Of a DNA stretch of 64,000 nt, positions 1 through 45,581 are shown piece by piece (position 1 is the first letter of the stretch; each line of letters starts with the position of its first letter). Made by a program: the position numbers and the translations under genes. The stretch lies in NCBI RefSeq assembly GCF_050320075.1, contig NZ_CP190018.1. One strand, 5' to 3'. This DNA is from Escherichia coli (GTDB lineage Bacteria > Pseudomonadota > Gammaproteobacteria > Enterobacterales > Enterobacteriaceae). The notes beneath the pieces are model-generated. The model searched no databases. It was not told where the DNA came from and worked only from the letters and a program-made list of their open reading frames with translations.

Positions 1-922
1 CCTGAATGAAACAGAGCAGCAACGTTCCCCATAAGGCCATCGTCAGGTAGGGGCTTATACCGAGAATATTGAAGCCGCTTTCAATAATTTGCAGAAGAAA
101 CAGCGCCAGCACCATACCAATTATCCGCCCGCTGCCGCCGTCCGGATTAACCCCGCCGAGTACTGCCGCGAGGATTGACACCAGCAAGTACGATTCGCCA
201 TAAGAGGCCTTAGCCGAGTTGAGTTTCGACATCATCAAAAATGCCGCTACCGCACAAAGCAAGGCGGAAATGACATAAACCCAAATCAGCACCCGACGAG
301 TGTTAATGCCGGAGTAAAGTGTTGCTCGTTCGTTAGAACCAATCAGATAAATGGATTTACCGAGCGGCGTTTTCTCCAGCAATATCCACAGCCCCAGCGC
401 CACTGCGGCAAACAACCACATCGGTAGCGGAATACCGAACCACTGTGCATGATTCAACCACAGCACCCATGAGGGATAATTGGCAATGGCGCTACCGCCT
501 GTCACCAGAATATTTACCCCTTTGAGCAACGTCATCATCCCGAGTGTTGCAAGAATTGGCGACACTCGAATACCAGCAATCAATACGCCGTTACATAAAC
601 CGATTATCACCGCCGCGCCAGCGCCCGCCAGCAGCGTAGCGACAACCGTAGCAATACCCGGTGGATACTGAGTCGCCACCCACGCCATCACCAGTGAACA
701 GGCGTTAGCAGTGGCTATAATTGACAAGTTAATGCCACCGCAAAGCATGGTCACCGCCATAGCCAACGCCAGAATGCCCAGCACGGGCATTTGCGAAGCG
801 ACGGACTGGAAATTACTTATCGACCAGAAAATCTCCGGCATAGTAATGCTGAACGCGGCAACAGTTAGCACCAGCAGGCCGATCAAGTAAAACTCAACGT
901 TATTACGCCACGATTTTTTCAT
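1..922 (-). CDS. Sugar ABC transporter permease (second permease, 3' part runs off the window start)
   Basis: Hand translation of the minus strand from ATG at 920-922 gives MKKSWRNNVEFYLIGLLVLTVAAF... with multiple hydrophobic helices, open to position 1. Its start overlaps the stop of the upstream permease (ATGA). Confidence 0.6.
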   Translation of the reverse strand, partial: MKKSWRNNVEFYLIGLLVLTVAAFSITMPEIFWSISNFQSVASQMPVLGILALAMAVTMLCGGINLSIIATANACSLVMAWVATQYPPGIATVVATLLAGAGAAVIIGLCNGVLIAGIRVSPILATLGMMTLLKGVNILVTGGSAIANYPSWVLWLNHAQWFGIPLPMWLFAAVALGLWILLEKTPLGKSIYLIGSNERATLYSGINTRRVLIWVYVISALLCAVAAFLMMSKLNSAKASYGESYLLVSILAAVLGGVNPDGGSGRIIGMVLALFLLQIIESGFNILGISPYLTMALWGTLLLCFIQ

Positions 923-1890
923 AGCAGACTCCGGTTCTGATGCTGACTCCACGCCGTGGCGCTAATGCTGGCAACGATGATGATGCCGGTGATCAATGTT
1001 TGCCAGTAAGACGAGACTCCCAATAAATTTAGCCCGTTTTGCATCACTGCCAACAACACCACGCCGAGCAAAGTACCGGTTAACGTGCCGCGCCCGCCGA
1101 GCAAACTAGTGCCGCCAAGCACCACCGCAGCCAGTACTGTCAGCTCATAACCCAGAAGAGAATCGGGGGCGACAGTCATCACCGTCCACGACTGCACTAC
1201 ACCCGCAGCGCCAGACATCAATCCCATATAGCCGTAGACGAAAAGTTGCAGTTTCAGCACGCTAAAGCCGATGCGACTGGCGGATTCACGGTTCCCGCCA
1301 AGGGCATAAATTTTGCGCCCTACACTGGTGAAATTCATGATAAACGCTGTCAGCAGCACCACCGTAATCATGGCGATCAGCGGCAGACCAAGGCCATAGT
1401 CATAGCCGTCAGCATCGGTGTACTTGAACAACATTCCCCCCTGCTCAAACCACGGCGGAAAGTCGTACAGCCACACACCTTTACTCAACCATAACAGCAG
1501 GCCATAGAAAATATTCAGCGTCGAAATGGTGATGATGATAGACGGCACCCGTAGGCGATTAACCAGTAAGGCGTTAATTAAGCCAAGTAAAATGCCGATG
1601 CCGCCCGCCAGTGCAAACGCAACAGCAAAGTTGCCACCAATTTTTTGCAGCAGCAGCACCATGCCGTATTGCGCAATGATGGTCATTGCCGGAAACGAAA
1701 TATCAATCCCACCGGAAATTAACACCACAAACAAACCACAGGCGAGAATAGTCAACATGGCATAGTTATTGGCGAGATCGTACAAATTACCGAATGTCAG
1801 AAACTCGTCGCTGCGCCAGGCAAGGCCAACAAACAGCACCACAATCAGTAATGCCAGCCAGAATTCATGGCGTTTTTTCAGTTCAGCCAT
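919..1890 (-). CDS. Sugar ABC transporter permease (RbsC/LsrC-like), 323 aa
   Basis: ORF-track protein is strongly hydrophobic and multi-helical with the typical permease core. It overlaps the ATPase stop by 8 nt, consistent with an operon. Confidence 0.75.
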   Translation of the reverse strand: MAELKKRHEFWLALLIVVLFVGLAWRSDEFLTFGNLYDLANNYAMLTILACGLFVVLISGGIDISFPAMTIIAQYGMVLLLQKIGGNFAVAFALAGGIGILLGLINALLVNRLRVPSIIITISTLNIFYGLLLWLSKGVWLYDFPPWFEQGGMLFKYTDADGYDYGLGLPLIAMITVVLLTAFIMNFTSVGRKIYALGGNRESASRIGFSVLKLQLFVYGYMGLMSGAAGVVQSWTVMTVAPDSLLGYELTVLAAVVLGGTSLLGGRGTLTGTLLGVVLLAVMQNGLNLLGVSSYWQTLITGIIIVASISATAWSQHQNRSLL

Positions 1891-3382
1891 TTACCACCTC
1901 CGCAATCCTGGCCTGAGAACTGCTGTCAGGCAGGAAGCTATGGGTGATCTGACCTTTTTGCATTACCAAAATCCGGTGGCTTTGATACCACGCTTCTTCA
2001 ATTTCATCGCAGATCATCAATACCGCAATGCCATGAGCCGCCAGATCGCTGATAATGCCGTATATTCCTGCTTTGTTGGCGATATCAACACCGATAGTCG
2101 GGCTATCGAGAATCAACAGTCGTGGCCCAATCGCCAGCCATTTGGCGATCGATACTCGCTGCGCGTTACCCCCAGAAAGCGTATTCACCGGGAGATGTGG
2201 GTCAGAGACTTTGATGGTCAATGCCTTGATTAGCCTGTCCACCAGGTCACGCACTTTAGCTTCACTCAGAAAGCCGAAGCGATCTTTTACCTTGTGAAAA
2301 ACAGTGCTAATGATGTTGTCTTCAATAGATTGCGCCATCACCAAACCGCGCGACATGCGATCTTCCGAAACATAACCAATACCGTGGCGGATGGCGTCCT
2401 GGTTACTATGCAGTGTAACCAGCTGGCCGTTGATGAGGATCTCGCCAGCATCCGGTCGGGTCATACCAAACAGACTCAGACATAATTCCGTGCGCCCCGC
2501 ACCAAGCAGGCCAACAATCGACACCACTTCGCCCGCTTCCACCCGCAAGTTAATATTTTGATATTCCCCATGACGACTTAAATTACGCACCTCCAGCACT
2601 GGGATGCTGGATTTTCCCTGCCACAACTCTCGCACCTGATATTCAAACTCCTGGCCGGTCATCAGGAAACCGAGTTGTTTTGTGGTCATCTCTGCAGCCG
2701 GAAAGGTCCCGACCAGCTCACCATCTTTCAGCACTGAAATACGGTCGGAAACTTCCATCACTTCTTCCAGACGATGACTGACGAAGACCACGCAGATCCC
2801 GCGTTCCCGCAATTGATGCACCACCTGTAATAACCCTTGCACTTCCTGATGGGTCAGCGAAGCGGTTGGTTCATCCATCACGATCAACCGTGCGTCCTGC
2901 GCCAGTGCACGGCAAATTGCCACCAGCTGACAGCGGGCAATTGAAAGCTCAGAAACGAGCGTATCCAGTGGCAATGTGACGTTAATACTGGTCATTGCCG
3001 CCTGCGCCACCTCACGCAGACGACGGCGGTTAACAAACAGACCGTGGTGATAGTGATTCACGGCGATATTCTCCCAGACACTCAGGTTAGGAAATAAAGA
3101 GAGGTCCTGATAAATCACCTGAATCCCCTGCGCCACCGAAGCGGCGGGTGTCAGCTTTGACCAGTTTTTCCCACCAAGCGTAATTTCCGCTCCCTCATCC
3201 GGGCGATAAACACCGGACATAATTTTAATCAACGTCGATTTACCACAGCCGTTTTGCCCGGCAAGGCAGTGCACCTCACCCGACATAAAGTCGAGAGAAA
3301 CATCGCGCAGCGCTCGCGTGGCATGAAACGTTTTGTTGATATGACGAAGGGAAAGGAAGGTTTCCATAGCATCCCCTGGCAA
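1883..3382 (-). CDS. Sugar ABC transporter ATP-binding protein with duplicated ABC domains, about 494-499 aa
   Basis: Two nucleotide-binding domains are visible: Walker A GQNGCGKST in the N-terminal half, a second P-loop GLLGAGRTE, and signature-like LSGGNAQ. The start may be the internal METFLSL (3367). Confidence 0.8.
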   Translation of the reverse strand: MPGDAMETFLSLRHINKTFHATRALRDVSLDFMSGEVHCLAGQNGCGKSTLIKIMSGVYRPDEGAEITLGGKNWSKLTPAASVAQGIQVIYQDLSLFPNLSVWENIAVNHYHHGLFVNRRRLREVAQAAMTSINVTLPLDTLVSELSIARCQLVAICRALAQDARLIVMDEPTASLTHQEVQGLLQVVHQLRERGICVVFVSHRLEEVMEVSDRISVLKDGELVGTFPAAEMTTKQLGFLMTGQEFEYQVRELWQGKSSIPVLEVRNLSRHGEYQNINLRVEAGEVVSIVGLLGAGRTELCLSLFGMTRPDAGEILINGQLVTLHSNQDAIRHGIGYVSEDRMSRGLVMAQSIEDNIISTVFHKVKDRFGFLSEAKVRDLVDRLIKALTIKVSDPHLPVNTLSGGNAQRVSIAKWLAIGPRLLILDSPTIGVDIANKAGIYGIISDLAAHGIAVLMICDEIEEAWYQSHRILVMQKGQITHSFLPDSSSQARIAEVVNG

Positions 3383-3415: not shown

Positions 3416-4213
3416 TTAATAAAGTGAGTCGATATTGTCTTTGTTGACCAGTAATACCTTATGGAAACGGATAATTCGCTTATCCATATCTACGTCGGCC
3501 TTACCGAGATTCTCCATTTCTAATCCAGGTTTGATCTCTTCACCCTTCAGCAACGTGCTGGCGACGGCCGCGAGTGCGTAACCTGCAGAGGCCGGATCGT
3601 AAGTAATCCCTTCGGTGATATCACCACTTTTAATCAGTGATGCCGCCTGTGAAGGGATCATCATGCCATAGACTGCGACTTTATTTTTCGCCCGTTTCTC
3701 TTTCACTGCACGTCCCGCGCCAATCGGACCGTTTGAACCAAAGGAGACAACCGCTTTCAAGTCAGGATAGGTTTTCATCAGGTCCAGTGTGGTACGACGT
3801 GAGTCATCCACACTCTCGGCAACCGGCATGCGGCGGGTAACTTCATGCATATCCGGGTAATGCTCTTTCTGGTATTTCACCAGCAAGTCAGCCCATAAGT
3901 TATGCTGCGGCACGGTCAAACTACCCACGTAAATCACATAGCCGCCCTTGCCACCCATGCGTTTCGCCATATGCTCAACATATTCAGCGGCAAATTTTTC
4001 GTTATCAATGATTTCGATATCCCAGTTAGCACTTGGCTGACCGGGGGATTCGTTGGTCAGAACCACAATTCCGGCATCTCGCGCTTTTTTGAATACCGGT
4101 TCCAGCACGTTGGCATCGTTTGGCACAATTGTAATTGCATTAACCTTACGGGCGATTAAATCCTCAATGATTTTAACCTGTTGCGGAGCATCAGTACTTG
4201 AAGGCCCCACCTG
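3416..4213 (-). pseudogene. Periplasmic sugar-binding protein (LsrB/RbsB family), C-terminal fragment cut off by IS150
   Basis: The ORF runs right up to the IS150 left end. The translation continues the N-terminal fragment at 5657..5849 once IS150 and one copy of the CCTG duplication are removed (987 nt, 328 aa). The track start is a GTG created at the junction. Confidence 0.8.
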
Positions 4214-4260
4214 TGTACTGCACCCATTTTGTTGGACGATGAAATGGAATAGCCCCTAAT

Positions 4261-4782
4261 ATGTCAAAGCCAAAATACCCTTTTGAAAAGCGCCTTGAAG
4301 TCGTGAATCACTACTTCACAACTGATGATGGTTACAGGATCATCTCGGCACGTTTTGGTGTCCCCCGAACCCAGGTCAGGACATGGGTTGCCCTCTATGA
4401 AAAACATGGAGAAAAAGGTTTAATTCCCAAACCTAAAGGCGTTAGTGCTGATCCAGAGTTGCGTATTAAGGTCGTGAAAGCTGTGATCGAGCAGCACATG
4501 TCCCTTAATCAGGCTGCTGCTCACTTTATGCTTGCTGGTAGTGGTTCTGTAGCCAGGTGGCTGAAGGTCTATGAAGAGCGCGGAGAAGCTGGTTTACGCG
4601 CGCTCAAGATTGGCACCAAAAGAAACATTGCAATATCAGTTGATCCAGAAAAAGCGGCATCAGCATTGGAGCTGTCAAAAGACCGACGCATTGAGGATCT
4701 TGAAAGGCAAGTTCGATTTCTTGAAACGCGGCTTATGTATCTAAAAAAGCTGAAAGCCTTAGCTCATCCCACGAAAAAGTAA
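4261..4782 (+). CDS. insJ: IS150 OrfA (InsJ), HTH DNA-binding transposase subunit, 173 aa
   Basis: Protein MSKPKYPFEKRLEVVNHYFTTDDGYRIISARFGVPRTQVRTWV... is recognised as IS150 InsJ. The A AAA AAG frameshift heptamer lies at 4743-4749 near its 3' end. Confidence 0.9.
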   Translation: MSKPKYPFEKRLEVVNHYFTTDDGYRIISARFGVPRTQVRTWVALYEKHGEKGLIPKPKGVSADPELRIKVVKAVIEQHMSLNQAAAHFMLAGSGSVARWLKVYEERGEAGLRALKIGTKRNIAISVDPEKAASALELSKDRRIEDLERQVRFLETRLMYLKKLKALAHPTKK

Positions 4783-5630
4783 AAGTACTCAACGAGCTAA
4801 GGCAGTTTTATCCTCTTGATGAGCTTCTCAGGGCTGCGGAGATACCGCGCAGTACGTTTTATTACCATCTAAAGGCTCTCAGCAAGCCTGACAAGTATGC
4901 GGACGTTAAAAAGCGTATTGGTGAGATTTATCACGAGAATAGAGGCCGATACGGATACCGTAGGGTAACGCTGTCTCTTCATCGAGAAGGGAAACAGATT
5001 AACCATAAAGCTGTTCAGCGCCTGATGGGAACCCTCTCACTTAAAGCAGCGATTAAGGTCAAGCGATACCGCTCTTACAGAGGAGAGGTAGGGCAAACCG
5101 CCCCTAATGTTCTCCAAAGAGATTTCAAGGCTACGCGGCCAAACGAGAAGTGGGTTACCGATGTTACTGAATTTGTAGTCAATGGGCGCAAGCTGTATTT
5201 GTCTCCAGTAATAGATCTCTTCAACAACGAAGTTATTTCTTACAGCCTTTCGGAAAGACCAGTGATGAACATGGTTGAGAATATGCTCGATCAGGCATTC
5301 AAAAAGCTTAATCCTCACGAGCATCCTGTTCTGCACTCTGACCAGGGATGGCAGTATCGTATGAGAAGATATCAAAATATCCTTAAAGAACATGGTATTA
5401 AACAAAGCATGTCCAGAAAAGGCAATTGTCTGGATAATGCTGTGGTGGAGTGTTTCTTTGGAACCTTAAAGTCGGAGTGTTTTTATCTTGATGAGTTCAG
5501 TAATATAAGCGAACTGAAGGATGCTGTTACGGAATATATTGAATACTACAACAGCAGAAGAATTAGCCTGAAATTAAAAGGTCTGACTCCAATTGAATAT
5601 CGGAATCAGACCTATATGCCTCGTGTTTAA
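4743..5630 (+). CDS. insK: IS150 OrfB (InsK) integrase-core reading frame, made as an OrfAB fusion by -1 frameshift
   Basis: The -1 frame is open from the slippery site to 5630 and reads ...[32 protein letters not shown]...DVTEF...HSDQGWQY...LKSE (DDE motif). The track lists only the ATG-initiated part, 5025..5630. Confidence 0.85.
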
Positions 5631-5849: not shown

Positions 5850-6099
5850 TTCAGCCTCATTGCAGGGTAGTCAGGAAGTGTTCGCCCAAATTAGCGCGCT
5901 GGAGAGAATAAGAATTTTCGAATATTTTTATGCAGAATAAACAGCCCTATTTCAGGCAGCTATTAAAAATTTGGTTATAAATATGGACAAAACGGGCAGT
6001 AACAATAAGTGTGACAATCATCACGTAAAAAACAGCAAAATAAACAAAATTAGCGATACTTTATGTTTGTGAGCTTATTTCGCGTAGAAAAATAGTTAT

Positions 6100-6510
6100 C
6101 TACACAACGTCAATAAGGGCATATTCTTCAAAGATAACGTCCATTTCTGGTGAATAGCATCCTTCTGTCTGGAAAAAACGACGGTGTTCATTACGCCAAT
6201 ATTCAAGACTGAGGTCACCTTCACCTTCCTTACGGGCAAGCTCTGCGGTGACATCAGAAAAGCGCAGTAAATGCAGGCCAATCACTCTGATAACACAGAC
6301 AGGCTCACCACGGCTATTTCCTACTATCTTATACTCACCAATCATCGGAAATGCGTTGTCTTCAATACATCCCGCCAGCGAACCACAGGAAGCTGTTTTA
6401 ACACCTGTCGCAATCAACGTTGCGAGGTGATCGGCCAACGCTGCTGAATCGCCAAAAGTACAAAAGGAAGCATGGGGATATTTTTGTGAGATTTTTTCTT
6501 TTATGGTCAT
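6100..6510 (-). CDS. ASCH-domain (PUA-like) protein, about 136 aa
   Basis: The ORF resembles small ASCH proteins such as YqfB (LIATGVKTASCGS ... GEPVCVIRVIG ... TAELARKEG). Start assumed at internal MTIKEKIS; the track start is 6543. Confidence 0.45.
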   Translation of the reverse strand: MTIKEKISQKYPHASFCTFGDSAALADHLATLIATGVKTASCGSLAGCIEDNAFPMIGEYKIVGNSRGEPVCVIRVIGLHLLRFSDVTAELARKEGEGDLSLEYWRNEHRRFFQTEGCYSPEMDVIFEEYALIDVV

Positions 6511-6807
6511 GAGAATATTTTCGCGATTACGGAAAAAAATCACATCTTAATTACTGTTGATAACCATCAGCAAGAGGATCATTGGTTTTTCTATGTTTAA
6601 TCTTTTTTATCCGAAGCCGGTCACATTTATGGCTTGATAAATACCTTTGTTAAAACTCACTTTTGTGTATTTCTCTCAAATAATCCCCTGGAAATTATGC
6701 CGGGAGATTATAAAGTTCAGGATCATTCATTAGCAAACCATTGCTGCCCCACTCCCTGGGGCTTTAAATCTCTTACGATTCACCATTGCAGGCGTTTCAA
6801 ATGCGTA

Positions 6808-8190
6808 TCAACCTGCCACACTCCCCCACACCAGTTGCCCTTTATGGAACGTCGCCGTTCTCGGCGAGATACGCGCCACCGCCTCGGCGGAACAGGAGGC
6901 GTCCACCAGCACAAAGCTGGCATCATCCTGCGCTTTGGGCCACACGCGCTCGCCTTTTTCGTTGAGCGGCAATACATCGCCAGTGGCTAAAAACAGCGAG
7001 CGGGAGAGGTTCTGTTCGTTAGGACGAATATAGAGCTGCGCGTACAGATTGGCTTTTTCCAGCATGTCGCCCAGGCCGTAAGGCGACCAGTGGTCGATAA
7101 CGCTGTCGGTGCCGGTCATCACTTTTACGCCTTTGTCGTGCAACTGTTTGAGCGGCATATGCAGCGTGCCAATCGGCACCGTCGAGGCGATAGAAATTTG
7201 CTGCGCCGCCATCCGGTGCGCCAGTTCATCTACCTGTTGCTCATTGAGCGTTGCCAGCGCAAAGGCGTGGCTGATGGTCAGCTTGCCCTTCAGTTGCGGC
7301 GTTTTCTCCACCGTTTCAACCATATAATTGATGGCTGCCACGCCTGCCGGAGTGGTTTCGTGCAGGTGAATATCAACGCCTTTGTCGTAGTCCAGCGCAA
7401 TCTGGAACATGGTGTCGAGGGATTTTTCCATCGCGCCATCAACACTGGTCGGGTCCAGCCCGCCGACGTAATGCGCCCCCGCCTGCATCGCTTCGCGCAT
7501 TAAGGGTTCTGATTTCGACAGCAGCAAACCGTGCTGCGGGAAGGCGACAATTTCACACTCGAAGCCCGCCTGACGTCGCGCCAGAACCGCCTGCAAATTT
7601 TGCAGATTTTTCAGGCCGGAAACCGGTTCGATATTGCAGTGGCTGCGGGAAATGGTAGTGCCTTTCGACTGCAATAAATCAATCAGTTTTTCCGCCCTTT
7701 CCTGAGTGTACGGTTGCAACTCCGGCAGCATTTTCTGCTCGAGTTTGATCATGTCCTGGATGGTGGTGCATGCCGGACGATTGAGCGAGCGCCACGGCCC
7801 GCCGTAGAAGGTTTTGTCGAGATGAATATGCATGTCGCGGGTGGTGGGCAGCATCAGCTTACCGCCAGCGTCATAGTGCGGCAGCGTGGCGTCCGGATGC
7901 TGATTGTTCTCGCGCAGTGCAACAATTTTGCCGTTCTGAATTTCCACAGTCTGGCGCGCCGTGCGGGTCTGCACCGCCACGCCATTTTCGTAGTCAAAAC
8001 CGGTTTCCAGCAACACGTTGTCGAGATAGTAGTGCGGGTCAGTGATTTTCATGGTGTTATTCGCGTCGCAGTGGGTTGTGCCAGAGACTGCCGCATGGGC
8101 GAGCGGCACAGAGGTACCAAACAGCGCGGCGGCGGTGACCATCTTACCGCTCTGGCTCAGAAACTCACGGCGGCTATTGCTTTCTTTCAT
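6808..8190 (-). CDS. yahJ: Metal-dependent amidohydrolase/deaminase with a twin-arginine signal peptide, 460 aa
   Basis: N-terminus MKESNSRREFLSQSGKMVTAAALFGTSVPLAHA has an SRRxFL Tat motif and an AxA cleavage site. The body carries amidohydrolase-like HxH and metal-ligand motifs. Length and context match YahJ. Confidence 0.75.
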   Translation of the reverse strand: MKESNSRREFLSQSGKMVTAAALFGTSVPLAHAAVSGTTHCDANNTMKITDPHYYLDNVLLETGFDYENGVAVQTRTARQTVEIQNGKIVALRENNQHPDATLPHYDAGGKLMLPTTRDMHIHLDKTFYGGPWRSLNRPACTTIQDMIKLEQKMLPELQPYTQERAEKLIDLLQSKGTTISRSHCNIEPVSGLKNLQNLQAVLARRQAGFECEIVAFPQHGLLLSKSEPLMREAMQAGAHYVGGLDPTSVDGAMEKSLDTMFQIALDYDKGVDIHLHETTPAGVAAINYMVETVEKTPQLKGKLTISHAFALATLNEQQVDELAHRMAAQQISIASTVPIGTLHMPLKQLHDKGVKVMTGTDSVIDHWSPYGLGDMLEKANLYAQLYIRPNEQNLSRSLFLATGDVLPLNEKGERVWPKAQDDASFVLVDASCSAEAVARISPRTATFHKGQLVWGSVAG

Positions 8191-8199
8191 CTTACGTCC

Positions 8200-9150
8200 T
8201 TACGTTTTAATAATATGGGTGCCCGTTTCACCGCGCAGCGCCGCAAGCAGGCATTCCGGCGTGGTGATAATCACTTCTTTGCCGCCCTGTTCCAGGAACG
8301 TCAGGCTGGCGATGATTTTTGGCAACATGCTGCCAGGCGGAAAATGCCCTTCCTGCATATAGCGGGTCATGGTGGCAATATCCACCCGATCGAGCGCCTG
8401 CTGCTGCGGTTTGCCAAAGTGAATACACACTTTTTCGACGCCAGTGGTGATCACCAGAATGTCGGCGTGAATTTCACGGGCCAATAGCGCGGTAGAGAGA
8501 TCTTTGTCGATAACCGCGTCCACGCTTTGGTAATCCCCCGCTTCACTGCACACCACCGGAATTCCGCCACCGCCCGCGCCAATCACCACAAAGCCTTGTT
8601 GGATCAGCGCCTTAATGGCAGGTGCTTCTACAATACGTTGCGGTTCCGGCGAGGCGACCACGCGGCGATAGCCCCGTCCGGCATCTTCAACAAAACGCCA
8701 GTCAGGGTTTGCCTTTTGTAATTCGTCACGCTGGCTGTCACTAAAGAATGCGCCGATGGGCTTGGTGGGATGAGCAAAACCCGGATCGTTTTTATCCACT
8801 TCCACCTGAGTCACCACGGTGACGGCTTTTTTCTCGCCATGACGCGCCAGTCGGTTGTTCAGCGCCTGTTGGATCAAGTAGCCAATGCCGCCTTGCGTAT
8901 CCGCCACACAGTTCGCCAGCGGCGTTAAGGGCAGCCCTTCGCGCTCGTGGGCAATCTCCGCGCGGCGTAAATCCAAACCGACCTGCGGTCCGTTGCCGTG
9001 GGTCAGCACAATGTCGTAATCGGAAGCCAGCATTTCCAGCACCGTATCGGCGACGGCTTTCACCGCCTCCGCCTGATGCTCAATCGACTGGCTGGCGTTA
9101 TCTTTGATAATGCTGTTGCCACCAATGGCAACGACCACAAGTTCTTTCAT
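8200..9150 (-). CDS. yahI: Carbamate kinase, 316 aa
   Basis: MKELVVVAIGGNSII... and the amino-acid-kinase fold are typical of carbamate kinase. Start taken at the internal ATG, giving 316 aa; the track ORF extends to 9267. Confidence 0.8.
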   Translation of the reverse strand: MKELVVVAIGGNSIIKDNASQSIEHQAEAVKAVADTVLEMLASDYDIVLTHGNGPQVGLDLRRAEIAHEREGLPLTPLANCVADTQGGIGYLIQQALNNRLARHGEKKAVTVVTQVEVDKNDPGFAHPTKPIGAFFSDSQRDELQKANPDWRFVEDAGRGYRRVVASPEPQRIVEAPAIKALIQQGFVVIGAGGGGIPVVCSEAGDYQSVDAVIDKDLSTALLAREIHADILVITTGVEKVCIHFGKPQQQALDRVDIATMTRYMQEGHFPPGSMLPKIIASLTFLEQGGKEVIITTPECLLAALRGETGTHIIKT

Positions 9151-9245
9151 ATTGTTATGTCCGCTACAGAGGGTGATGGGGTTATGAGAGTGAGGTTGCC
9201 CCTCTCCCCAGAAGGAAGAAGGGATCGTAAGGTGCAGTTGGAGGG

Positions 9246-10664
9246 TCAGACGCCGTAACGTTCGCACCAGCCAAGAATGGCTTTCTCGAAGCAGGCGAAT
9301 GGTGGATGCACAATGCCCGCGCCAATCATGCCAACGCCCGCATCTTTATGGGCAATGGCGGTGTTGATCACCGGCAGAATGCCGCTACTGCCCACGCGGG
9401 TGATGTCGATTGCCGACGGCACGCCCATAAAACCGAGCAGCGGAATGGTGACGTTGGGGTTTTCACCGAGAGTGATTTCGCGCATCTGACGGGAGAAATC
9501 GATAGCCTCTTCCACCGTGCCGCCCACCAGCGCGACGATCGCGGGCGCGGTAGCCATAGCAAATCCACCAATGCCGTAGGTTTCGGTGATGGCGCTGTCG
9601 CCAATATCCAGCCCCGAATCTTCCGGCTTATAACCGGCAAACATCGGGCCGATCACCTGCTGCGCCGGACCGGTAAACCATTGCCCCGGTAATCCGCTGA
9701 CCCGCAGGCCGAACTCGACGCCGTTACGCGCCATCGTGGTGACCACGGTGCTGTATTCGATGCCGTGCGCCGCATCCATCGCCGCTTTACACATCGCCAT
9801 CCACGTCGGGCCGGAGAAGTAGTCGCTGCTGGCGACAAACTCAAACACTTCGCGCTGTTGCTCGACGGAATAACCTGCCTGAATAATCCCCGGCGTCAGC
9901 GCCTGAATCAGCAGCGTCGTCCCGGCGTTATTACGGTTATGGCATTCATCGCCCATATGCAGCGCCTGCGCCAGCATTAAGCGCAGATCGATTTCGCCGA
10001 TAATTTTCATCGCGTCGCGCAGCATTGGCCCCTGCACATCGCGCATCCAGTTGAGGCGGTCAATCACGCTCTGGTCGTTAGCGCCCATACGCAAAATCTT
10101 CGCCATCTGCTCGCTCATATTGGTGTAAGCGATGTTGCCGTAGGTTTTGTTTTTTACGATGTGCATAAACATCGAGGCCGAGGTAACACCTGCCATCGAT
10201 CCCACACAGTCGTGTTCATGGCACGGCGAGAAGGTGATCTCCCCGGAGGCCGCCAAGTCAGCCGCCTCGTCGAGATCTTTCGCCAGCCCTTCGAACACCA
10301 GCGCCCCGGTGACCGCGCCTTTCATTGCGCCGCACATTTTTTCCCAGGTCACTGGCGGCCCGGCGTGAAGAATGGTTTTCGGCGTCATTCCCGGCACCAC
10401 GTTAATCGCCTGATCAAAACCAATCAGCACCGGATGCGACTGGATAATGCGCTCCAGCGCCTGCTGGTTAGCGGCGGCGATTTTGTCTGCCAGCGGCGAA
10501 TCGGCAATGTTATCCAGCGCCTGCACCACCTGCATATTGCCCTGCCCCGGCGGCGTCCAGTCGAGTTGGGTCACTTCTACATGCTGCTTTTTCAAATCAT
10601 CGCTAAACATGGCGATGCCGACGTTAATAACGTTCAACGGTTGGCTAAACAGTGACTGGCTCAT
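9246..10664 (-). CDS. yahG: DUF1116-family protein (YlbE-like), 472 aa
   Basis: Length and position match yahG. The stop overlaps the yahF start by 1 nt, suggesting translational coupling. Confidence 0.7.
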   Translation of the reverse strand: MSQSLFSQPLNVINVGIAMFSDDLKKQHVEVTQLDWTPPGQGNMQVVQALDNIADSPLADKIAAANQQALERIIQSHPVLIGFDQAINVVPGMTPKTILHAGPPVTWEKMCGAMKGAVTGALVFEGLAKDLDEAADLAASGEITFSPCHEHDCVGSMAGVTSASMFMHIVKNKTYGNIAYTNMSEQMAKILRMGANDQSVIDRLNWMRDVQGPMLRDAMKIIGEIDLRLMLAQALHMGDECHNRNNAGTTLLIQALTPGIIQAGYSVEQQREVFEFVASSDYFSGPTWMAMCKAAMDAAHGIEYSTVVTTMARNGVEFGLRVSGLPGQWFTGPAQQVIGPMFAGYKPEDSGLDIGDSAITETYGIGGFAMATAPAIVALVGGTVEEAIDFSRQMREITLGENPNVTIPLLGFMGVPSAIDITRVGSSGILPVINTAIAHKDAGVGMIGAGIVHPPFACFEKAILGWCERYGV

Positions 10665-12211
10665 CAGGCTTCCTCCCCTTTGCAGATAAATTCACGCGCC
10701 AGCAATCCGGTATTGGTGCTGCTGCTTGCCAGAATTACCCCAGCATCAAGCAGCATCTGGCTTTGTTGTTCTAACGATGGCGTATCGAGATCGGTACCCA
10801 GCACATAGGCGAGAATGATCAACTCGCGCCCTTCGGCAGCGGCGATCGCTTTCGCCTCTTTGATCGCCTCGATGGTGGAACCGACCGGATCTTCATGCGA
10901 TCCAAACCCGAGCACAAAATCCATCACGATCACCGCCACTTCTGGATCGTGCGCCTCTTCGATCAAGCGGCTGATACGGTTGGTGGGGTCAATCATTGGA
11001 TGCGGCTTGCCGTTGGTGAAGTCGTCATCGCCAAAGTCGAGGAAGGTGTGTTTGATGCTGCGGTTGATATCTTGCAGGCGGAATTCAGGATCGGGCTGAA
11101 TGTTGCTGTAGACATCGCCATGTTTTTCCATCACCGCGAACATGGTTTCGTCACACAGCGTACCGCCGCAGAACAGGCCACGAATGTATTTCTGTTGCGG
11201 CTTCAGGCGAGCGCGCACGTCAGCAATCAATGGCTGGTTCAGGGTATGCAGATCGAGATGTTCCTGTTTCACGCCGGAGAGCATCACCGCTTTCAGCGCC
11301 GCTTCTTTGCTGCCGCGGGCAAACTTTAGCCCCTGCTCATCCACTGGCGTTTCGCCACGACCGAGGAAGCAGACCACCACCGGCTTGCGGCAGGCGCGTG
11401 CGCGTTCCAGCACTTTGCGGGCCACCGCAGGCGCAGGCGGTTTGGAGATAAGCACAATAATTTCAGTTTGCGGATCGTTTTCCAGCATCCCGATGGCGTC
11501 GAGCATCATCAGGCCGCCGATTTTCTCGCTCAGGTCGCGCCCGCCGGTGCCGATCAGTTGCGAAACGCCGCCGCCAAATTCATGGATACGGACGCTCAGC
11601 TCCTGGCTACCGGTGCCGGATGCGCCAACAATGCCGATGTTGCCGCGACGCACGGCGTTACCAAAGCAGAGCGCCGCGCCGTTGATAATCGCCGTACCGC
11701 AGTCTGGCCCCATCATCAGCAGCCCTTTTTCGTGGGCCAACTGTTTGAGCGCCAGTTCATCTTCAACTGAGACGTTATCGGAAAACAGCATCACGTTAAG
11801 ATCGTTTTGCAGCGCCTGACGCGCTTCGCGAGCGGCAAACAGACCGTTGACCGAAATCACCGCCAGGTTACTTTCCGGGATATGCTTTTTGGCGCTGGCA
11901 ATAGTGGCGTAACGCGCCTCGTGCGGGCCGCTTTGCGCTTTGCTGTTGAACAGTTCTTCAATCTCCACCAGCAACTGCTCGTTGTCTGCGCCCGATTTAC
12001 CATTGATGACAATCATCAGGTCACCGTTTTTCGCCTGCTCCAGCTCCGGCGTCAGCAGCCCTAAATTCTTCAGCACGCCTTTGTTCATTTCGGTCGCCAT
12101 CGCCACAAATGCCTGCTCGACGCCGTCAAGTTTATTTGCACGCGTGGAGATAGACATCAGCGAGACAGAATCAAAATAGGTATTCGGTTTAATGACTATT
12201 TTAACTGACAT
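10664..12211 (-). CDS. yahF: FdrA-like protein with a CoA-ligase/succinyl-CoA-synthetase-alpha-like fold, 515 aa
   Basis: Rossmann/CoA-binding style motifs (GIVGASGTGSQ, GxGG). Length and context match YahF, the FdrA paralogue. Confidence 0.7.
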   Translation of the reverse strand: MSVKIVIKPNTYFDSVSLMSISTRANKLDGVEQAFVAMATEMNKGVLKNLGLLTPELEQAKNGDLMIVINGKSGADNEQLLVEIEELFNSKAQSGPHEARYATIASAKKHIPESNLAVISVNGLFAAREARQALQNDLNVMLFSDNVSVEDELALKQLAHEKGLLMMGPDCGTAIINGAALCFGNAVRRGNIGIVGASGTGSQELSVRIHEFGGGVSQLIGTGGRDLSEKIGGLMMLDAIGMLENDPQTEIIVLISKPPAPAVARKVLERARACRKPVVVCFLGRGETPVDEQGLKFARGSKEAALKAVMLSGVKQEHLDLHTLNQPLIADVRARLKPQQKYIRGLFCGGTLCDETMFAVMEKHGDVYSNIQPDPEFRLQDINRSIKHTFLDFGDDDFTNGKPHPMIDPTNRISRLIEEAHDPEVAVIVMDFVLGFGSHEDPVGSTIEAIKEAKAIAAAEGRELIILAYVLGTDLDTPSLEQQSQMLLDAGVILASSSTNTGLLAREFICKGEEA

Positions 12212-13064
12212 AATTCCCTCCGTAGGTTTGGCTCAGCGCACAACCATCGGCCATGCCATACAGCATGTCGCAGCCGGAACTGGAGCCAATATGTTTAATT
12301 TTTTCTATTGCCTGAGTTGCGTTCCCAGGGATGTCATAAATAATGTTATGAATAAAACGATGAATATCTTCCCGGCAGCGTTGTTGTAATGCGGCTTCCA
12401 GCGTTATGGCACTTAATAACGTGGTATTATTTCTGCCGCGTTGCAGACCGAGATAAAATTCCTCTTTGTATTTTTCCGCCGGATGCCCAGGAATAAATAA
12501 AATAAGCGCCAGACCTGTTAAATAATCGTCGGCTGATGGCGTAAGGCCAATCCCTAAGCCCATCATACTGGCGACCGCTGAGGCGATATTTTGTTTATCG
12601 TTTACGGCCTGAATAACTGCCCGTCGTTTAATATGTAATTCTTTATTTAACGCCTGATAAAACGGATTATCGCCGCAATAATTAAACAGGGTTTCATTTT
12701 CCCCCAGGTGCTGATGAATAATGTCATGCCACTGTTGCCAGGCGATAAGGTGAAAATTCACAGCGGTCATTTGCAAGGTTGGGGACAGCCAACGCCGACA
12801 ACGACTCATCTCTATATGAAGATGTTGACCAACCGTAATGCCTTGATCGTCAAACTGAACCTTATCACCATGCCGGAACAGACCATCAAAGTGAGTGAGT
12901 GCCAACCGACAACTGTTTGGCGCATTGTCGTACTCTTCACAAAGCAGCGTCAGCAACTGCTGGCGGGCCGGAAGTGCGATATTTACCGCTCTGGCAAAGA
13001 CCTGTTCAACCTGTCCTTGCCCCCGCTGCGCCAGAAAATCAGCATCCGCAGTTAGCGCCCACAC
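12201..13064 (-). CDS. yahE: DUF2877-family protein (YlbF-like), 287 aa
   Basis: ORF overlaps the yahF start by 11 nt. Length and context match yahE. Confidence 0.65.
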   Translation of the reverse strand: MWALTADADFLAQRGQGQVEQVFARAVNIALPARQQLLTLLCEEYDNAPNSCRLALTHFDGLFRHGDKVQFDDQGITVGQHLHIEMSRCRRWLSPTLQMTAVNFHLIAWQQWHDIIHQHLGENETLFNYCGDNPFYQALNKELHIKRRAVIQAVNDKQNIASAVASMMGLGIGLTPSADDYLTGLALILFIPGHPAEKYKEEFYLGLQRGRNNTTLLSAITLEAALQQRCREDIHRFIHNIIYDIPGNATQAIEKIKHIGSSSGCDMLYGMADGCALSQTYGGNYVS

Positions 13065-13103
13065 ACACCGTCTTTCTGGTGTGTTGATAGCAAGCCTCCC
13101 GGT

Positions 13104-13709
13104 TTATGCACCTGCGGCCATCAGTAACTGCGCAATCTCTTCAAAGCCTCGTTCCCGCGCCAGTTCCAGCGGCGTTTTGCCATATTTATCCGTCATGTGC
13201 GGGCTGGCACCGTGTTCCAGCAATAACTGGACAATCGCCTGCTGTTTAATCCCGCCATCATTAAGCACAATTGCTTCCAGTAGCGGCGTCCAGCCAACAT
13301 GGTTGGTCTGGTTAACGTTAATCTCCGTATGCGCCAAAAGCTCTTTTACAATACTTAAATGGCCTTTTTCACAGGCAGGCGTCAGGCCGACACCGCCAAA
13401 ACGGGTGACGCAATTAAGATCGGGTTTAGCCGGTAAAATAATCCGTAACAGGGTTAAATCGCCGGTCAGGCAGCTAATTAAAAAAGGATTTGAACATATT
13501 TGATCTTGCTTATTAATATCTGCTCCGGCATCAATTAATGCCTGAACGCAAGCATATTGCTGATATAAACTTGCCAGCGTAATTGCCGTTTTCCCCTGAC
13601 GATCGCAGGTATTAATATCGACACCCAGCGCAAGGCAGGTTTTTACTTTATCGATATCACCCTGTTGCGCAGCCAATAAATAGTCGGCAGGTAGATTTTT
13701 TATAGTCAT
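13104..13709 (-). CDS. yahD: Ankyrin-repeat protein, 201 aa
   Basis: Repeated ankyrin-like units (G.TALH/LA...G....V..LL..GAD.N) are visible in the translation. Length matches YahD. Confidence 0.75.
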   Translation of the reverse strand: MTIKNLPADYLLAAQQGDIDKVKTCLALGVDINTCDRQGKTAITLASLYQQYACVQALIDAGADINKQDQICSNPFLISCLTGDLTLLRIILPAKPDLNCVTRFGGVGLTPACEKGHLSIVKELLAHTEINVNQTNHVGWTPLLEAIVLNDGGIKQQAIVQLLLEHGASPHMTDKYGKTPLELARERGFEEIAQLLMAAGA

Positions 13710-13966
13710 TCACATTCCCCTGGTTTTTGTGGCTGTTTTCGATGAATTGAGAATAGCAACGATAATCTGATAAAAGAACCCGCTTAAATTTAATTCGCCG
13801 TATTTCGCCTTTTTGTTGAATGATGTTCAACAATCTTTTCGCAGTGTGCGGTAGTGCAATATTTGTTTCTTTGACCCGATACCCTTTCACTCAATCAGGT
13901 TTTATTTCTCTATAGTCTGCACATGTAAGAGTAGCTTTCGTCCATGTCTAACCAGAGGGGAACAAG

Positions 13967-14464
13967 ATGAACGGACTCACGGCAACGGGTGTCACCGTCG
14001 GTATTTGTGCAGGGCTTTGGCAGTTAGTGTCTTCACATGTTGGGCTCTCTCAGGGATGGGAATTATTAGGAACCATTGGCTTCGTCGCCTTTTGCAGTTT
14101 TTATGCCGCAGGCGGCGGTAAAACGGGGTTTATCAGAAGCCTGGCGGTTAATTATTCCGGGATGGTGTGGGCGTTTTTCGCCGCGCTGGCTGCCGGTTGG
14201 CTGGCCTCGGTGAGTGGATTGTCCACGTTCTGGGCGAGCGTGATTATGACTGTACCCTTCTCGGCGGTAGTGGTCTGGCAAGGACGTTTCGGTTTATTGT
14301 CTTTTATTCCCGGAGGCTTTCTCGGCATGACGCTATTTTTTGCCAGCGGGATGAACTGGACGGTGACATTACTGGGTTTTCTGGCGGGTAACTGCGTGGG
14401 GATAATTTCAGAATATGGCGGACAAAAATTAAGCGAAGCGACGACTAAACGCGACGGGTATTAA
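13967..14464 (+). CDS. yahC: Inner-membrane protein, 165 aa
   Basis: Highly hydrophobic ORF with several predicted helices, transcribed divergently from yahD. Length matches YahC. Confidence 0.65.
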   Translation: MNGLTATGVTVGICAGLWQLVSSHVGLSQGWELLGTIGFVAFCSFYAAGGGKTGFIRSLAVNYSGMVWAFFAALAAGWLASVSGLSTFWASVIMTVPFSAVVVWQGRFGLLSFIPGGFLGMTLFFASGMNWTVTLLGFLAGNCVGIISEYGGQKLSEATTKRDGY

Positions 14465-14555
14465 AAGTTATTCAAAAATGATTATCTATCTTTAACCGAT
14501 ACCTCTACAGTCATGGCTGGAGAAATTCATAGTAGATAATGGCGGGAATGGTTTA

Positions 14556-15488
14556 ATGAACTCAATTTTTACCGAAGAGAATCTGTTGGCATTTACTACC
14601 GCTGCGCGTTTTGGCAGCTTCAGTAAAGCCGCAGAAGAGTTGGGTTTAACCACTTCCGCCATTAGCTACACCATCAAGCGAATGGAAACAGGGCTGGATG
14701 TGGTGCTGTTCACTCGCAGTACCCGAAGCATTGAGTTAACGGAGTCCGGGCGTTATTTTTTCCGCAAAGCTACCGACCTGCTGAATGATTTTCACGCCAT
14801 CAAACGCAGCATCGATACTATTTCGCAGGGTATAGAAGCACGGGTGCGCATTTGTATTAACCAACTGCTTTATACGCCCAAACACACCGCACGCTTATTA
14901 CAGGTACTGAAAAAGCAGTTTCCTACCTGCCAGATTACCGTCACCACCGAAGTGTATAACGGCGTCTGGGATGCGATTATTAATAATCAGGCGAATATCG
15001 CTATCGGCGCACCCGACACGCTGCTGGACGGTGGCGGCATTGATTACACGGAGATTGGCGCGATTCGCTGGGCTTTTGCCATCGCCCCGGATCACCCGTT
15101 AGCCTTTGTGCCGGAGCCGATCGCCGAAAGCCAACTGCGTCTCTACCCTAATATCATGGTGGAGGACACCGCACATACGATTAATAAAAAAGTGGGCTGG
15201 TTGCTGCATGGGCAGGAGTCAATTCTGGTGCCAGATTTCAACACCAAATGTCAGTGCCAGATTTTAGGTGAAGGAATTGGTTTTTTGCCGGATTACATGG
15301 TCCGTGAGGCGATGGCGCAATCCCTGCTGGTTACCCGACAAATCCATAATCCGCGCCAGGATTCGCGCATGTTACTGGCGACCCAGCACTCTGCCACCGG
15401 TCAGGTGACGCAGTGGATTAAAAAACAATTTTCGCCAAATGGCATATTAACGGGGATCTATCAGGATTTACTGCATCGGGAGAATTAA
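14556..15488 (+). CDS. yahB: LysR-family transcriptional regulator, 310 aa
   Basis: N-terminal LysR HTH (FTTAARFGSFSKAAEELGLTTSAISYTIKRME) plus a substrate-binding domain. Confidence 0.8.
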   Translation: MNSIFTEENLLAFTTAARFGSFSKAAEELGLTTSAISYTIKRMETGLDVVLFTRSTRSIELTESGRYFFRKATDLLNDFHAIKRSIDTISQGIEARVRICINQLLYTPKHTARLLQVLKKQFPTCQITVTTEVYNGVWDAIINNQANIAIGAPDTLLDGGGIDYTEIGAIRWAFAIAPDHPLAFVPEPIAESQLRLYPNIMVEDTAHTINKKVGWLLHGQESILVPDFNTKCQCQILGEGIGFLPDYMVREAMAQSLLVTRQIHNPRQDSRMLLATQHSATGQVTQWIKKQFSPNGILTGIYQDLLHREN

Positions 15489-38324: not shown

Positions 38325-41248
<2,924 letters not shown>

Positions 41249-41330
41249 CTAAACTTTCAGGAGATTTATTATGAATAAACGTATCCTCACGATTGCGCCA
41301 TTCTTCTTACCGATATTCTGACACACATCA

Positions 41331-42257: not shown

Positions 42258-42413
42258 TGTAAACCTTAACTTAACACTGTGATAGATATTAGACCATTGA
42301 TGATAACCAATACAAGTCATACTATTACGCCGTTCTCGATATGAACACGAATGCCAGTTGCGGATAATAGAAATGATATTTAAATCTGTTTAGGCAAATC
42401 CCCGGAGCTTGAA

Positions 42414-43334: not shown

Positions 43335-43507
43335 TAATCTTACAGGGAGATTCCTTATCTCCCTGACATTTATCCTTTATTGACTACACAACAATAATAA
43401 AATTACTCAAAAAGAATTCTATTAAAGGAAAAAAAGCATCAAAAAGTAGCAACTCAACTTATTAAGATTATACGCATTAAAATCAGATAAACATTTGAGG
43501 TATTGTT

Positions 43508-45570: not shown

Positions 45571-45581
45571 AGGTAAAAATG

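Follow-up and report, generated by a model that had tools for sequence, protein, structure and literature searches.

Why does the last gene of an operon with clearly cytoplasmic enzymes encode a protein with an export signal, and does the product of that protein feed the other enzymes? This question was addressed for yahJ of Escherichia coli, which lies in a stretch of 64,000 nt (the window; all positions are counted from its first letter). The yah operon belongs to the uncharacterised 'y-ome' (PMC11551758). The best explanation overall, given a probability of about 0.6, is that YahJ is exported by Tat, acts in the periplasm and yields a product that feeds YahEFGI. The features of the locus are listed in Table 1.

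Table 1. Features of the yah locus, in order of position in the window.
Feature	Position	Strand	Evidence
yahJ CDS, 460-aa precursor	6808..8190	-	ORF list; RefSeq annotation of identical strain; Pfam, NCBIfam
Catalytic amidohydrolase domain, residues 49-459	6814..8046	-	H121, H123, H275, E278, H308, D362
c-region A31-H-A33, predicted signal peptidase I site	8092..8100	-	Sequence; A-x-A in 79/80 homologues
Tat-type signal peptide, codons 1-33, MKESNSRREFLSQSGKMVTAAALFGTSVPLAHA	8092..8190	-	Sequence; PMC7549933 Table 2; dN/dS 0.04-0.21
h-region, residues 17-30, MVTAAALFGTSVPL, uncharged, mildly hydrophobic	8101..8142	-	Hydropathy
Twin-arginine motif S-R-R-E-F-L, residues 6-11	8158..8175	-	Motif screen; 80/80 homologues
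Shine-Dalgarno AAGGA	8197..8201	-	Direct reading; overlaps yahI stop TAA 8200-8202
yahI, carbamate kinase family, without signal peptide	8200..9150	-	Pfam AA_kinase; NCBIfam PRK12352 643 bits vs 266
yahG-yahI intergenic gap, 95 nt; site of 515-aa transporter gene in most other genera	9151..9245	-	
yahG, AllG-family subunit, without signal peptide	9246..10664	-	Pfam AllG 298 bits
yahF, FdrA/AllF-family subunit, without signal peptide	10664..12211	-	Pfam CoA-binding and CoA-ligase; NCBIfam PRK06091 490 bits vs 433
yahE, AllH-family subunit, without signal peptide	12201..13064	-	Pfam AllH 99 bits
yahD, ankyrin-repeat protein, first operon gene, without signal peptide	13104..13709	-	Pfam ankyrin families
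yahC, DUF1097 small membrane protein, divergent from yahD	13967..14464	+	Pfam DUF1097
yahB, LysR-type regulator	14556..15488	+	Annotation

The yahJ gene and its signal peptide

The yahDEFGIJ operon ends with yahJ. The RefSeq coordinates in the annotation of an identical strain agree exactly with those of the reading frame. The yahI stop codon and the yahJ start are separated by 9 nt, and the ATG (8188-8190) follows the AAGGA Shine-Dalgarno sequence at a spacing of 6 nt. AGGA or GGAA boxes were kept before the same ATG in eight relatives.

The precursor begins with MKESNSRREFLSQSGKMVTAAALFGTSVPLAHA, followed by AV, and has the n-, h- and c-regions of a Tat signal. Residues 6-11 fit the consensus S/T-R-R-x-F-L-K, with S at the position of the consensus K. 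Residues 17-30 form an uncharged stretch within the 12-20 or so residues expected of a Tat h-region. Its Kyte-Doolittle mean was 1.64 for the best 12 residues; by the method used for the published table, mean hydropathy was 0.74, compared with 0.95 +/- 0.49 for 20 other published E. coli Tat signals, a reference set composed of Tat signals alone. The c-region lacks a basic Sec-avoidance residue. Cleavage after A-H-A is predicted and would give a mature YahJ starting at A34. Cys41 was considered as a lipoprotein site and rejected: the residues before it form no lipobox and the cysteine is not conserved.

A motif screen of all 1470 ORF/start combinations in the window returned the full Tat pattern in only two real genes, yahJ and yagT/paoA, the latter encoding a known Tat substrate. 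Reversed-sequence decoys gave 0 matches.

Species-level YahJ homologues carried RRx[F/L][L/I] in 80 of 80 cases, followed by A-x-A in 79. Compared with seven relatives, codons 1-33 of yahJ had dN/dS values of 0.04-0.21, synonymous sites being almost saturated. The arginine codons of the motif vary between CGC and CGT among relatives while the residues stay constant. The signal is under purifying selection. A Tat-type signal was retained by representatives at least 43% identical to YahJ and by one at 34%, the pair reading R-K in two cases; the N-terminal extension is absent from a sister clade of approximately 400 aa at approximately 35-46% identity. The initial annotation had read SRREFL ... 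AHA as a twin-arginine signal, and this reading held: n-, h- and c-regions were all found and are strongly conserved. It had also named a start codon downstream of the arginine pair as one circumstance that would undo the claim. Such a start is excluded by the conserved Shine-Dalgarno sequence and ATG, the dN/dS values and the arginine pair of all 80 species-level homologues. Judged by its sequence, the peptide is a genuine Tat-type signal.

That YahJ carries a Tat signal is already known. YahJ is listed among E. coli Tat substrates (PMC7549933, PMC3027627), TatP calls it a substrate (PMC7549933) and the 33-residue signal in Table 2 of PMC7549933 is identical to the peptide described here. As YahJ is a textbook entry in such lists, the signal itself adds nothing new; the useful part of the locus is the yah operon. 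Deletion of yahJ caused a small competitive defect in mouse infection by ExPEC (competitive index 0.70, p = 0.02; PMC7549933).

AmiA, AmiC, SufI, MdoD and FhuD, which use Tat and have no redox cofactors (PMC7549933), resemble YahJ in having an S/T-R-R-x-F-L-type motif, a mild h-region and A-x-A. They are soluble periplasmic passengers, as YahJ is predicted to be, and YahJ stands in the same published table. Among them YahJ is the sole one whose gene shares an operon with clearly cytoplasmic enzymes. A periplasmic location of YahJ is considered highly probable.

The enzyme domain and the operon partners

YahJ matched Pfam Amidohydro_3 at 71.2 bits (cut-off 29.7) and NCBIfam PRK06846 at 713 bits (cut-off 447), the latter alignment beginning only at residue 49. 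The best solved relatives were an AtzC-like structure (6nbo, E = 3.9e-43) and cytosine deaminase (E = 1e-15 to 1e-18). The active-site motifs are of deaminase type (HxH, HxxE, H, D) and the catalytic residues are intact. H121, H123, H275, H308 and D362 were invariant in a 17-sequence alignment; E278 was kept within the YahJ clade and replaced in distant and signal-less clades. By these profiles and motifs YahJ is assigned to the AtzC/cytosine-deaminase branch of the amidohydrolase superfamily. A metal site is expected because the metal-ligand residues are conserved.

AtzC (N-isopropylammelide isopropylaminohydrolase; 6nbo, 2qt3) and CodA (1k6w) belong to the same branch and have HxH, HxxE, H and D at the matching motifs. 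The solved chains of these enzymes align from chain residues 11-63 opposite YahJ residues 76-107, so that these alignments show no counterpart to the YahJ signal. Both enzymes are cytoplasmic. The catalytic residues of YahJ presumably match the CodA positions (strand-5 His, strand-6 His, strand-8 Asp). Identity between YahJ and AtzC or CodA is low and the substrate can therefore not be transferred from them. Assignment of YahJ as a cytosine deaminase was rejected: three models (two subfamily, one equivalog) scored 66-101 bits against cut-offs of 403-483. Enzymes of this branch hydrolyse C-N bonds of amino-substituted N-heterocycles.

The N-termini of YahE, YahF, YahG and YahI were examined, and neither a Tat motif nor n-h-c signal architecture was present in any of the four, as the initial annotation had stated for these partners. 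The hydrophobic stretch at the N-terminus of YahI corresponds to the first strand of the amino-acid-kinase fold. Lacking signal peptides and using phosphate and ADP, the four proteins must be cytoplasmic.

In yahEFGI, three subunits of the AllF, AllG and AllH families are encoded together with a carbamate kinase. AllFGH is the oxamic transcarbamylase, which splits oxalurate with phosphate into oxamate and carbamoyl phosphate, and AllK is the carbamate kinase (PMC11326118). YahE, YahF and YahG are paralogues of AllH, AllF and AllG, respectively. Since AllFGH was only recently established as the oxamic transcarbamylase (PMC11326118), YahEFG and YahI can now be taken as a second pathway that yields carbamoyl phosphate. 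The two operons follow one logic, a carbamoyltransferase followed by a kinase. The yah set differs from the all cluster in being a separate paralogous copy accompanied by an ankyrin protein, an amidohydrolase with a Tat signal and, in most genera, a transporter; the preceding enzymes of the all cluster come from the adjacent allECD operon (PMC11326118). PMC11326118, in which the activity was shown for AllFGH, makes no mention of the yah paralogues. A literature search on YahC/DUF1097 and YahD returned nothing useful. yahB is the likely regulator of the divergent yah operon.

Gene context and possible coupling to YahEFGI

Gene context was surveyed for 80 species-level YahJ homologues, 38 of which have the yahEFGI cluster. 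yahI and yahJ are adjacent in 38 species. In 30 of the 38 cluster-bearing species a gene for a 515-aa transporter lies between yahG and yahI. Searching the window by tblastn gave no remnant of this gene. The E. coli lineage lacks the gene and carries yahC, and the E. coli cluster holds no recognisable importer. Cluster-bearing loci comprised 7 with yahC, 30 with the transporter and 0 with both, yahC occurring only where the transporter is missing. Repeated independent alternation of the two genes was rejected: neighbour-joining trees of YahG and of YahF placed all yahC-type clusters in a single clade. The pattern therefore represents a single event and not statistical support, and YahC is weakly indicated as the E. 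coli transporter by this one replacement.

The 515-aa transporter gave no match in Pfam, NCBIfam or PDB profiles, and hhalign against true Xan_ur_permease gave none. Its AlphaFold model had a pLDDT of 86 and a pTM of 0.83; residues 85-87 and 303-305 form short strands of the kind that the UraA-type fold has in TM3 and TM10. In a Foldseek search with this model the best 50 of 72 matches (E <= 0.001) were all SVCT1, UraA, SLC26, BicA, Bor1 and AZG carriers. The model thus points to a UraA-type carrier fold with a 7+7 inverted repeat (NCS2/AzgA/SulP). Source databases label the protein a xanthine or AGZA permease.

Context beyond the enterobacterial cluster also bears on where YahJ acts. In Priestia a yahJ homologue, tatA and tatC lie in a row, with gaps of 30 nt and 67 nt, divergent from a Xan_ur_permease gene. 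The phoD-tatAd-tatCd operon of Bacillus subtilis likewise combines a phosphodiesterase gene with its own tat genes. In both arrangements the substrate gene is directly followed by tatA and tatC; the passenger in Priestia is an amidohydrolase of YahJ type and that of phoD a phosphodiesterase, and the Priestia translocase is presumably dedicated to its passenger. In Caulobacter the yahJ homologue lies 30 nt downstream of a gene for a TonB-dependent receptor. A distant contig encodes the transporter, an Ank-TPR protein, AllH, AllF, AllG, carbamate kinase and an amidohydrolase that again bears a Tat signal, with an adjoining PucR regulator.

These arrangements are part of the basis for the favoured reading. 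YahJ would fold and take up a single metal ion in the cytoplasm, cross the membrane via TatABC and be cut after A-H-A, so that mature YahJ would be a soluble periplasmic amidohydrolase. In a first stage it may hydrolyse a nucleobase-like or ureide nitrogen compound in the periplasm. The product would then be imported, in most genera by the cluster-encoded transporter of 7+7 fold and in the E. coli lineage by YahC or an unlinked carrier. In a third stage, phosphorolytic cleavage of a carbamoyl group would give carbamoyl phosphate and from it ATP, NH3 and CO2. Here we infer that native YahJ is exported by Tat and that its signal is cleaved, and likewise to which class the substrate belongs, in what order the steps run and which protein is the importer; YahJ is placed first in that order presumptively. 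The three-stage scheme in its entirety is held tentatively, with somewhat less than even odds of being correct throughout. The comparative evidence for a periplasmic step followed by uptake is new; it suggests such a sequence and supports it short of proof. If YahJ is periplasmic as predicted, the search for the substrate is narrowed by this location, by the carrier of nucleobase or anion type that most genera encode within the cluster and by the loss of that carrier in E. coli.

The principal alternative is that YahJ is exported but independent. In the periplasm it would act as a hydrolase for nitrogen scavenging or detoxification, partnered by YahD; in some enterobacteria it would share an operon and a regulator with YahEFGI and feed them no substrate. 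A Tat-bearing YahJ without yahEFGI within 10 kb was found in 42 of the 80 species. yahD adjoins the yahJ homologue in 42/80 species, 8 of which have yahD and yahJ alone, without yahEFGI. A LysR gene was the commonest neighbour (36 loci), as called with a simple ORF caller that is noisy in high-GC loci. Besides LysR and YahD, the cluster-less loci contained unrelated housekeeping genes (gor, rlmJ, dbpA, cheV-like, tctA and others), which gave no hint of the substrate. On plasmids of E. coli the LysR/Ank/AllH/AllF/AllG/transporter/kinase set occurs with yahJ missing. The YahJ-like enzyme of the distant cluster L006 is only 35% identical, compared with 73% for YahG and 70% for the transporter. 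In Alphaproteobacteria and in the metagenomic contig L008 the ankyrin protein itself carries an export signal, of Sec or lipoprotein type. The active site of YahJ is of deaminase type and nothing else in the cluster could open a ring to give a carbamoyl substrate, which makes a chemical link between YahJ and YahEFG less certain.

Against independence stand the short yahI-yahJ spacing, the I-J adjacency, which is seen again, Tat signal included, in the distant contig, and the transporter within the cluster, which is most simply explained as taking up a product made outside the cytoplasm. On balance an independent YahJ is considered the less likely reading. The initial annotation had proposed a compartment split, with hydrolysis outside the cytoplasm followed by uptake. 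This was borne out in part: the transporter gene, the Priestia tatA-tatC and permease genes and the Caulobacter TonB receptor favour it, whereas the many species with Tat-YahJ and no yahEFGI, together with the plasmid clusters without yahJ, speak against a general link. From these last two observations the coupling of YahJ to YahEFGI is therefore optional.

Export route, direction of the pathway and YahD

A second alternative accepts a periplasmic YahJ and questions its route. If YahJ were taken in vivo mainly by Sec, export of a folded, metal-loaded enzyme would be wrong. PMC6788121 describes the YahJ signal peptide (ssYahJ) as carrying reporter proteins to the periplasm (citing Tullman-Ercek 2007 and Fisher 2008), as a secretion tag and as recognised by Tat and Sec alike (citing Tullman-Ercek 2007); by this report it is Sec-compatible, unlike the signals of the AmiA/AmiC/SufI/MdoD/FhuD group. 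The missing basic residue in the c-region points in the same direction. However, this promiscuity was seen with reporters and not with native folded YahJ. Sec has no need of the arginine pair that is invariant among the homologues, the h-region is weakly hydrophobic, as in other Tat signals, and a Gram-positive homologue is encoded in one operon alongside tatA and tatC genes of its own. A mainly Sec-routed YahJ is accordingly judged improbable.

The reverse direction, in which the cytoplasmic enzymes make or modify a compound, the transporter exports it and YahJ hydrolyses it last in the periplasm, would suit the final place of yahJ in the gene order and the ability of 7+7-fold transporters to work in both directions. 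It is nevertheless very improbable: AllFGH and AllK act together in catabolism and yield ATP (PMC11326118), by its score YahI is a carbamate kinase of the AllK kind, and the neighbouring TonB-dependent receptor and uptake-type nucleobase permease suggest incoming substrates. That the N-terminal peptide is no working signal, through a wrong start or a vestigial motif, and that YahJ stays in the cytoplasm is scarcely credible given the conserved Shine-Dalgarno sequence and ATG, the low dN/dS of the peptide, the arginine pair in all homologues and the export of reporters by ssYahJ (PMC6788121).

Tat export of YahJ, the favoured reading, also bears on YahD, a conserved but unexplained companion of YahJ. 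In PaoABC (PMC4273604) and HybOC a signal-less hitchhiker is encoded beside a protein with a Tat signal, as enterobacterial YahD is beside YahJ. The YahD-YahJ pairing differs from these in being drawn from gene neighbourhood, and relatives of YahD elsewhere carry their own signals. A fusion of YahD to mature YahJ through a (GGGGS)6 linker was modelled with AlphaFold from 20 paired rows to look for a complex; it gave a pTM of 0.59 and a mean pLDDT of 73, with parts of YahJ itself poorly modelled. One speculative and rather improbable proposal is that YahD and YahJ are physical partners and that in Alphaproteobacteria and L008 YahD is exported through a Sec or lipoprotein signal of its own. With that signal lost in Enterobacterales, YahD would there either hitchhike through Tat with folded YahJ or act in the cytoplasm to keep YahJ inactive or competent for export. 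For a bacterial ankyrin protein each of these roles would be novel, and each would offer a fresh reason for the use of Tat by YahJ.

Signal peptide and translational start of YahJ

Several complete E. coli chromosomes match window positions 6000-14600 at 100% identity, and their annotation names the genes as yahJ, yahI, yahG, fdrA (yahF), yahE, yahD, yahC and yahB. The interval examined matched the annotated yahJ gene exactly, and the yahI-yahJ spacing was 9 nt. The N-terminus of YahJ reads MKESNSRREFLSQSGKMVTAAALFGTSVPLAHA followed by AVSG and contains the elements of a twin-arginine (Tat) signal listed in the table. A loose Tat motif was run against all 1470 ORF/start combinations (minimum 60 aa) in the window. 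Among real genes, the full pattern was found only in YahJ and YagT/PaoA, and reversed-sequence decoys gave 0 matches. The window therefore holds two Tat substrates. Hydropathy of the YahJ h-region was 0.74; 20 E. coli Tat signals from the literature, scored by the same measure, gave 0.95 +/- 0.49, a range that includes YahJ. The Tat signal described in the initial annotation is thus a correct observation, well above chance.

Coordinates of features in the window and in the YahJ protein
Feature	Position	Strand	Remarks
Sugar-type ABC transporter genes	919-3382		remaining genes, adjoining the IS150-interrupted gene
IS150 (IS3 family)	3416-5630		inserted into AI-2-type ABC substrate-binding protein gene
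ASCH-domain gene	6100-6543	minus	directly downstream of yahJ, between yahJ and the IS element
yahJ	6808-8190	minus	460 aa
yahJ ATG	8188-8190	minus	AAGGA box 6 nt before, overlapping the yahI stop codon
yahG-yahI gap	9151-9245		95 nt
yahD	13104-13709	minus	ankyrin protein
yagT/paoA	55772-56461	plus	twin-arginine signal; known Tat substrate; passed the screen
S-R-R-x-F-L motif	residues 6-11		YahJ
h-region	residues 17-30		YahJ; uncharged, mildly hydrophobic
A-H-A	residues 31-33		YahJ

The main objection anticipated was that translation truly begins after the RR motif, and the evidence argues against it. Compared with seven other Enterobacterales, codons 1-33 gave dN/dS values of 0.04-0.21, with many synonymous and few non-synonymous changes. 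In the same comparison the arginine codons alternated between CGC and CGT with the residues unchanged, and an AGGA/GGAA box preceded the same ATG in each relative. The curated NCBIfam amidohydrolase subfamily model aligned to YahJ only from residue 49, which marks residues 1-48 as an addition to the catalytic domain.

The Tat signal of YahJ is established knowledge rather than new. The protein (b0324) is among predicted Tat substrates (PMC3027627) and among 25 substrates predicted by TatP in an ExPEC strain, with an identical 33-residue peptide; deletion of yahJ there gave a mild competitive defect (competitive index 0.70, p = 0.02; PMC7549933). The signal peptide, ssYahJ, has been employed as a secretion tag in a study which states that Tat and Sec both recognise it, as they do ssDmsA and ssYcdB (PMC6788121). 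No published demonstration of the location of native YahJ was found in a literature search. We put the probability that YahJ is periplasmic at roughly 0.85.

Enzyme family and conservation of the signal

YahJ passed the Pfam Amidohydro_3 and NCBIfam PRK06846 'amidohydrolase' models. Among proteins of solved structure it was closest to N-isopropylammelide hydrolases of the AtzC type (E = 3.9e-43) and to cytosine deaminases (E values of about 1e-15 to 1e-18). Cytosine deaminase models were failed by a wide margin, and YahJ should therefore not be named as such. In an alignment of 17 sequences, H121, H123, H275, H308 and D362 were invariant, and in the YahJ clade E278 supplied the Glu of an HxxE motif. 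By analogy with CodA and adenosine deaminase, we take these six residues to be ligands and proton shuttles, and YahJ is presumably a one-metal enzyme displacing exocyclic amino groups.

Scanning a single genome for each species yielded 80 yahJ loci (57-98% identity) from Enterobacterales, Aeromonas/Shewanella-type Gammaproteobacteria, Halomonas and many Rhizobiales and Rhodobacterales. RR-x-[F/L]-[L/I] was present near the N-terminus in 80/80, and A-x-A followed the hydrophobic stretch in 79. Among 1.84 billion cluster representatives searched, the full-length relatives of at least 43% identity, and one at 34%, bore a Tat-type signal; R-K replaced R-R in two of them. A sister group (~400 aa, roughly 35-46% identity) begins with the catalytic domain and has no signal. 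The signal is thus ancient and has been maintained within one defined clade.

Partner proteins and a candidate carrier

YahF, YahG, YahE and YahI belong to the AllF/FdrA, AllG, AllH and carbamate kinase families, respectively. In 2024 AllFGH proved to be an oxamic transcarbamylase, converting oxalurate and phosphate to oxamate and carbamoyl phosphate, from which AllK makes ATP; the yah paralogues are not mentioned in that study (PMC11326118). Inspection of the N-termini of YahD, YahE, YahF, YahG and YahI revealed no Tat motif or signal-like sequence; the hydrophobic start of YahI is the strand with which the kinase fold begins. YahEFGI accordingly lack signal peptides, as first proposed, and must act in the cytoplasm because they use phosphate and ADP. 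If YahJ is exported, the proposed compartment split is genuine.

Of the 80 species loci, 38 had yahI immediately upstream of yahJ. In 30 of these clusters, covering most genera, a gene for a highly conserved polytopic membrane protein of 512-526 aa (the 515-aa transporter) was located between yahG and yahI (for example L018:7461-9011, in one of the homologue loci). Seven clusters had no such gene and carried yahC divergent from yahD; none had both, and one was cut off by the locus edge. The window cluster is of the yahC type, from a lineage without the transporter, and tblastn found no transporter remnant in the window. The transporter had no match in Pfam, NCBIfam or PDB sequences. Its AlphaFold model (pLDDT 86, pTM 0.83) has two short intramembrane strands, and the matches listed for the predicted fold were solely 7+7 inverted-repeat carriers (SVCT1, UraA, SLC26/prestin, BicA, Bor1 and AZG1/2). 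Source databases name it a xanthine or AGZA permease; database matches (63-73% identity) came from Bacillales, Alpha- and Betaproteobacteria. A carrier dedicated to the cluster is a prediction of the hydrolysis-then-uptake model of the initial annotation.

Neighbour-joining trees built for YahG and for YahF placed all yahC-type clusters in one clade nested among transporter types, so the exchange of the transporter gene for yahC was essentially one event. It hints faintly that YahC replaces the transporter functionally; a literature search on DUF1097 (YahC) found nothing useful, and the suggested role of YahC in uptake remains weak. On a distant metagenomic contig, L006, the transporter (70% identical to that of Citrobacter) occurs with an ankyrin-TPR protein, AllH, AllF, AllG, carbamate kinase, an adjoining PucR-type regulator and an amidohydrolase that is 35% identical to YahJ and bears an SRRRTFI signal. 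Thus the split arrangement is found again at a great distance from E. coli.

The gene for YahD accompanied yahJ in 42/80 species loci, eight of them as a two-gene module without yahEFGI. YahD relatives also lay beside YahJ homologues on metagenomic contigs at 46-62% identity; related loci were L001, L008, L040-L048, L067, L069 and L073. Among Alphaproteobacteria, the ankyrin proteins of Microvirga and Leisingera bear their own Sec or lipoprotein signal, as do those of a soil contig and of the metagenomic contig L008; those of Enterobacterales and L006 have none. Enterobacterial YahD might thus partner YahJ in the cytoplasm until YahJ is exported, or leave through Tat along with folded YahJ. 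An AlphaFold run on a YahD-YahJ fusion protein gave a pTM of 0.59.

YahJ outside the cluster

In Priestia (Bacillaceae), a homologue 51% identical to YahJ has an SRRRFI signal and is followed after 30 nt by tatA, then tatC, in an apparent operon (L002:10001-12438), with a divergent Xan_ur_permease gene. The layout resembles phoD-tatAd-tatCd of B. subtilis and looks like a dedicated Tat translocase for a YahJ-type enzyme in a Gram-positive host. A Caulobacter homologue lies 30 nt after a TonB-dependent receptor gene, and a signal-less Acinetobacter relative is preceded by a Bmp-family ABC uptake system and a TetR regulator. Jointly, these gene neighbourhoods put the enzymes that carry a Tat signal outside the cytoplasm and point loosely to nucleobase-like compounds.

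Hydrolysis outside the cytoplasm is a reasonable interpretation with new comparative support from the transporter, tatAC, the TonB-dependent receptor and the exported ankyrin partners. Coupling to YahEFGI is optional across genomes. In 42/80 species Tat-bearing YahJ had no yahEFGI within 10 kb; a LysR regulator was the commonest neighbour there, and other neighbours were unrelated genes. A second, transporter-type cluster copy was found in 142 of 5426 complete E. coli genomes, mostly plasmid-borne (106 plasmid places). On the one plasmid inspected (L095, IncFII, NZ_JBVWEU010000002.1, 41096-49529), the cluster comprised LysR, ankyrin, AllH, FdrA, YlbE, transporter and carbamate kinase genes without yahJ, and ended in IS fragments. 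How a deaminase-type YahJ would yield a carbamoyl donor is not obvious, and the cluster genes include none for a ring-opening enzyme. The complete scheme, in which hydrolysis outside the cytoplasm is followed by uptake and the formation of carbamoyl phosphate and ATP, is tentative, at somewhat below even odds.

At residues 141 and 180, YahJ of this strain has Cys and Ser, against Gly and Ala in the other E. coli alleles retrieved. In-frame internal deletions occur in some E. coli alleles (414-433 aa), suggesting that yahJ is decaying in part of the species.
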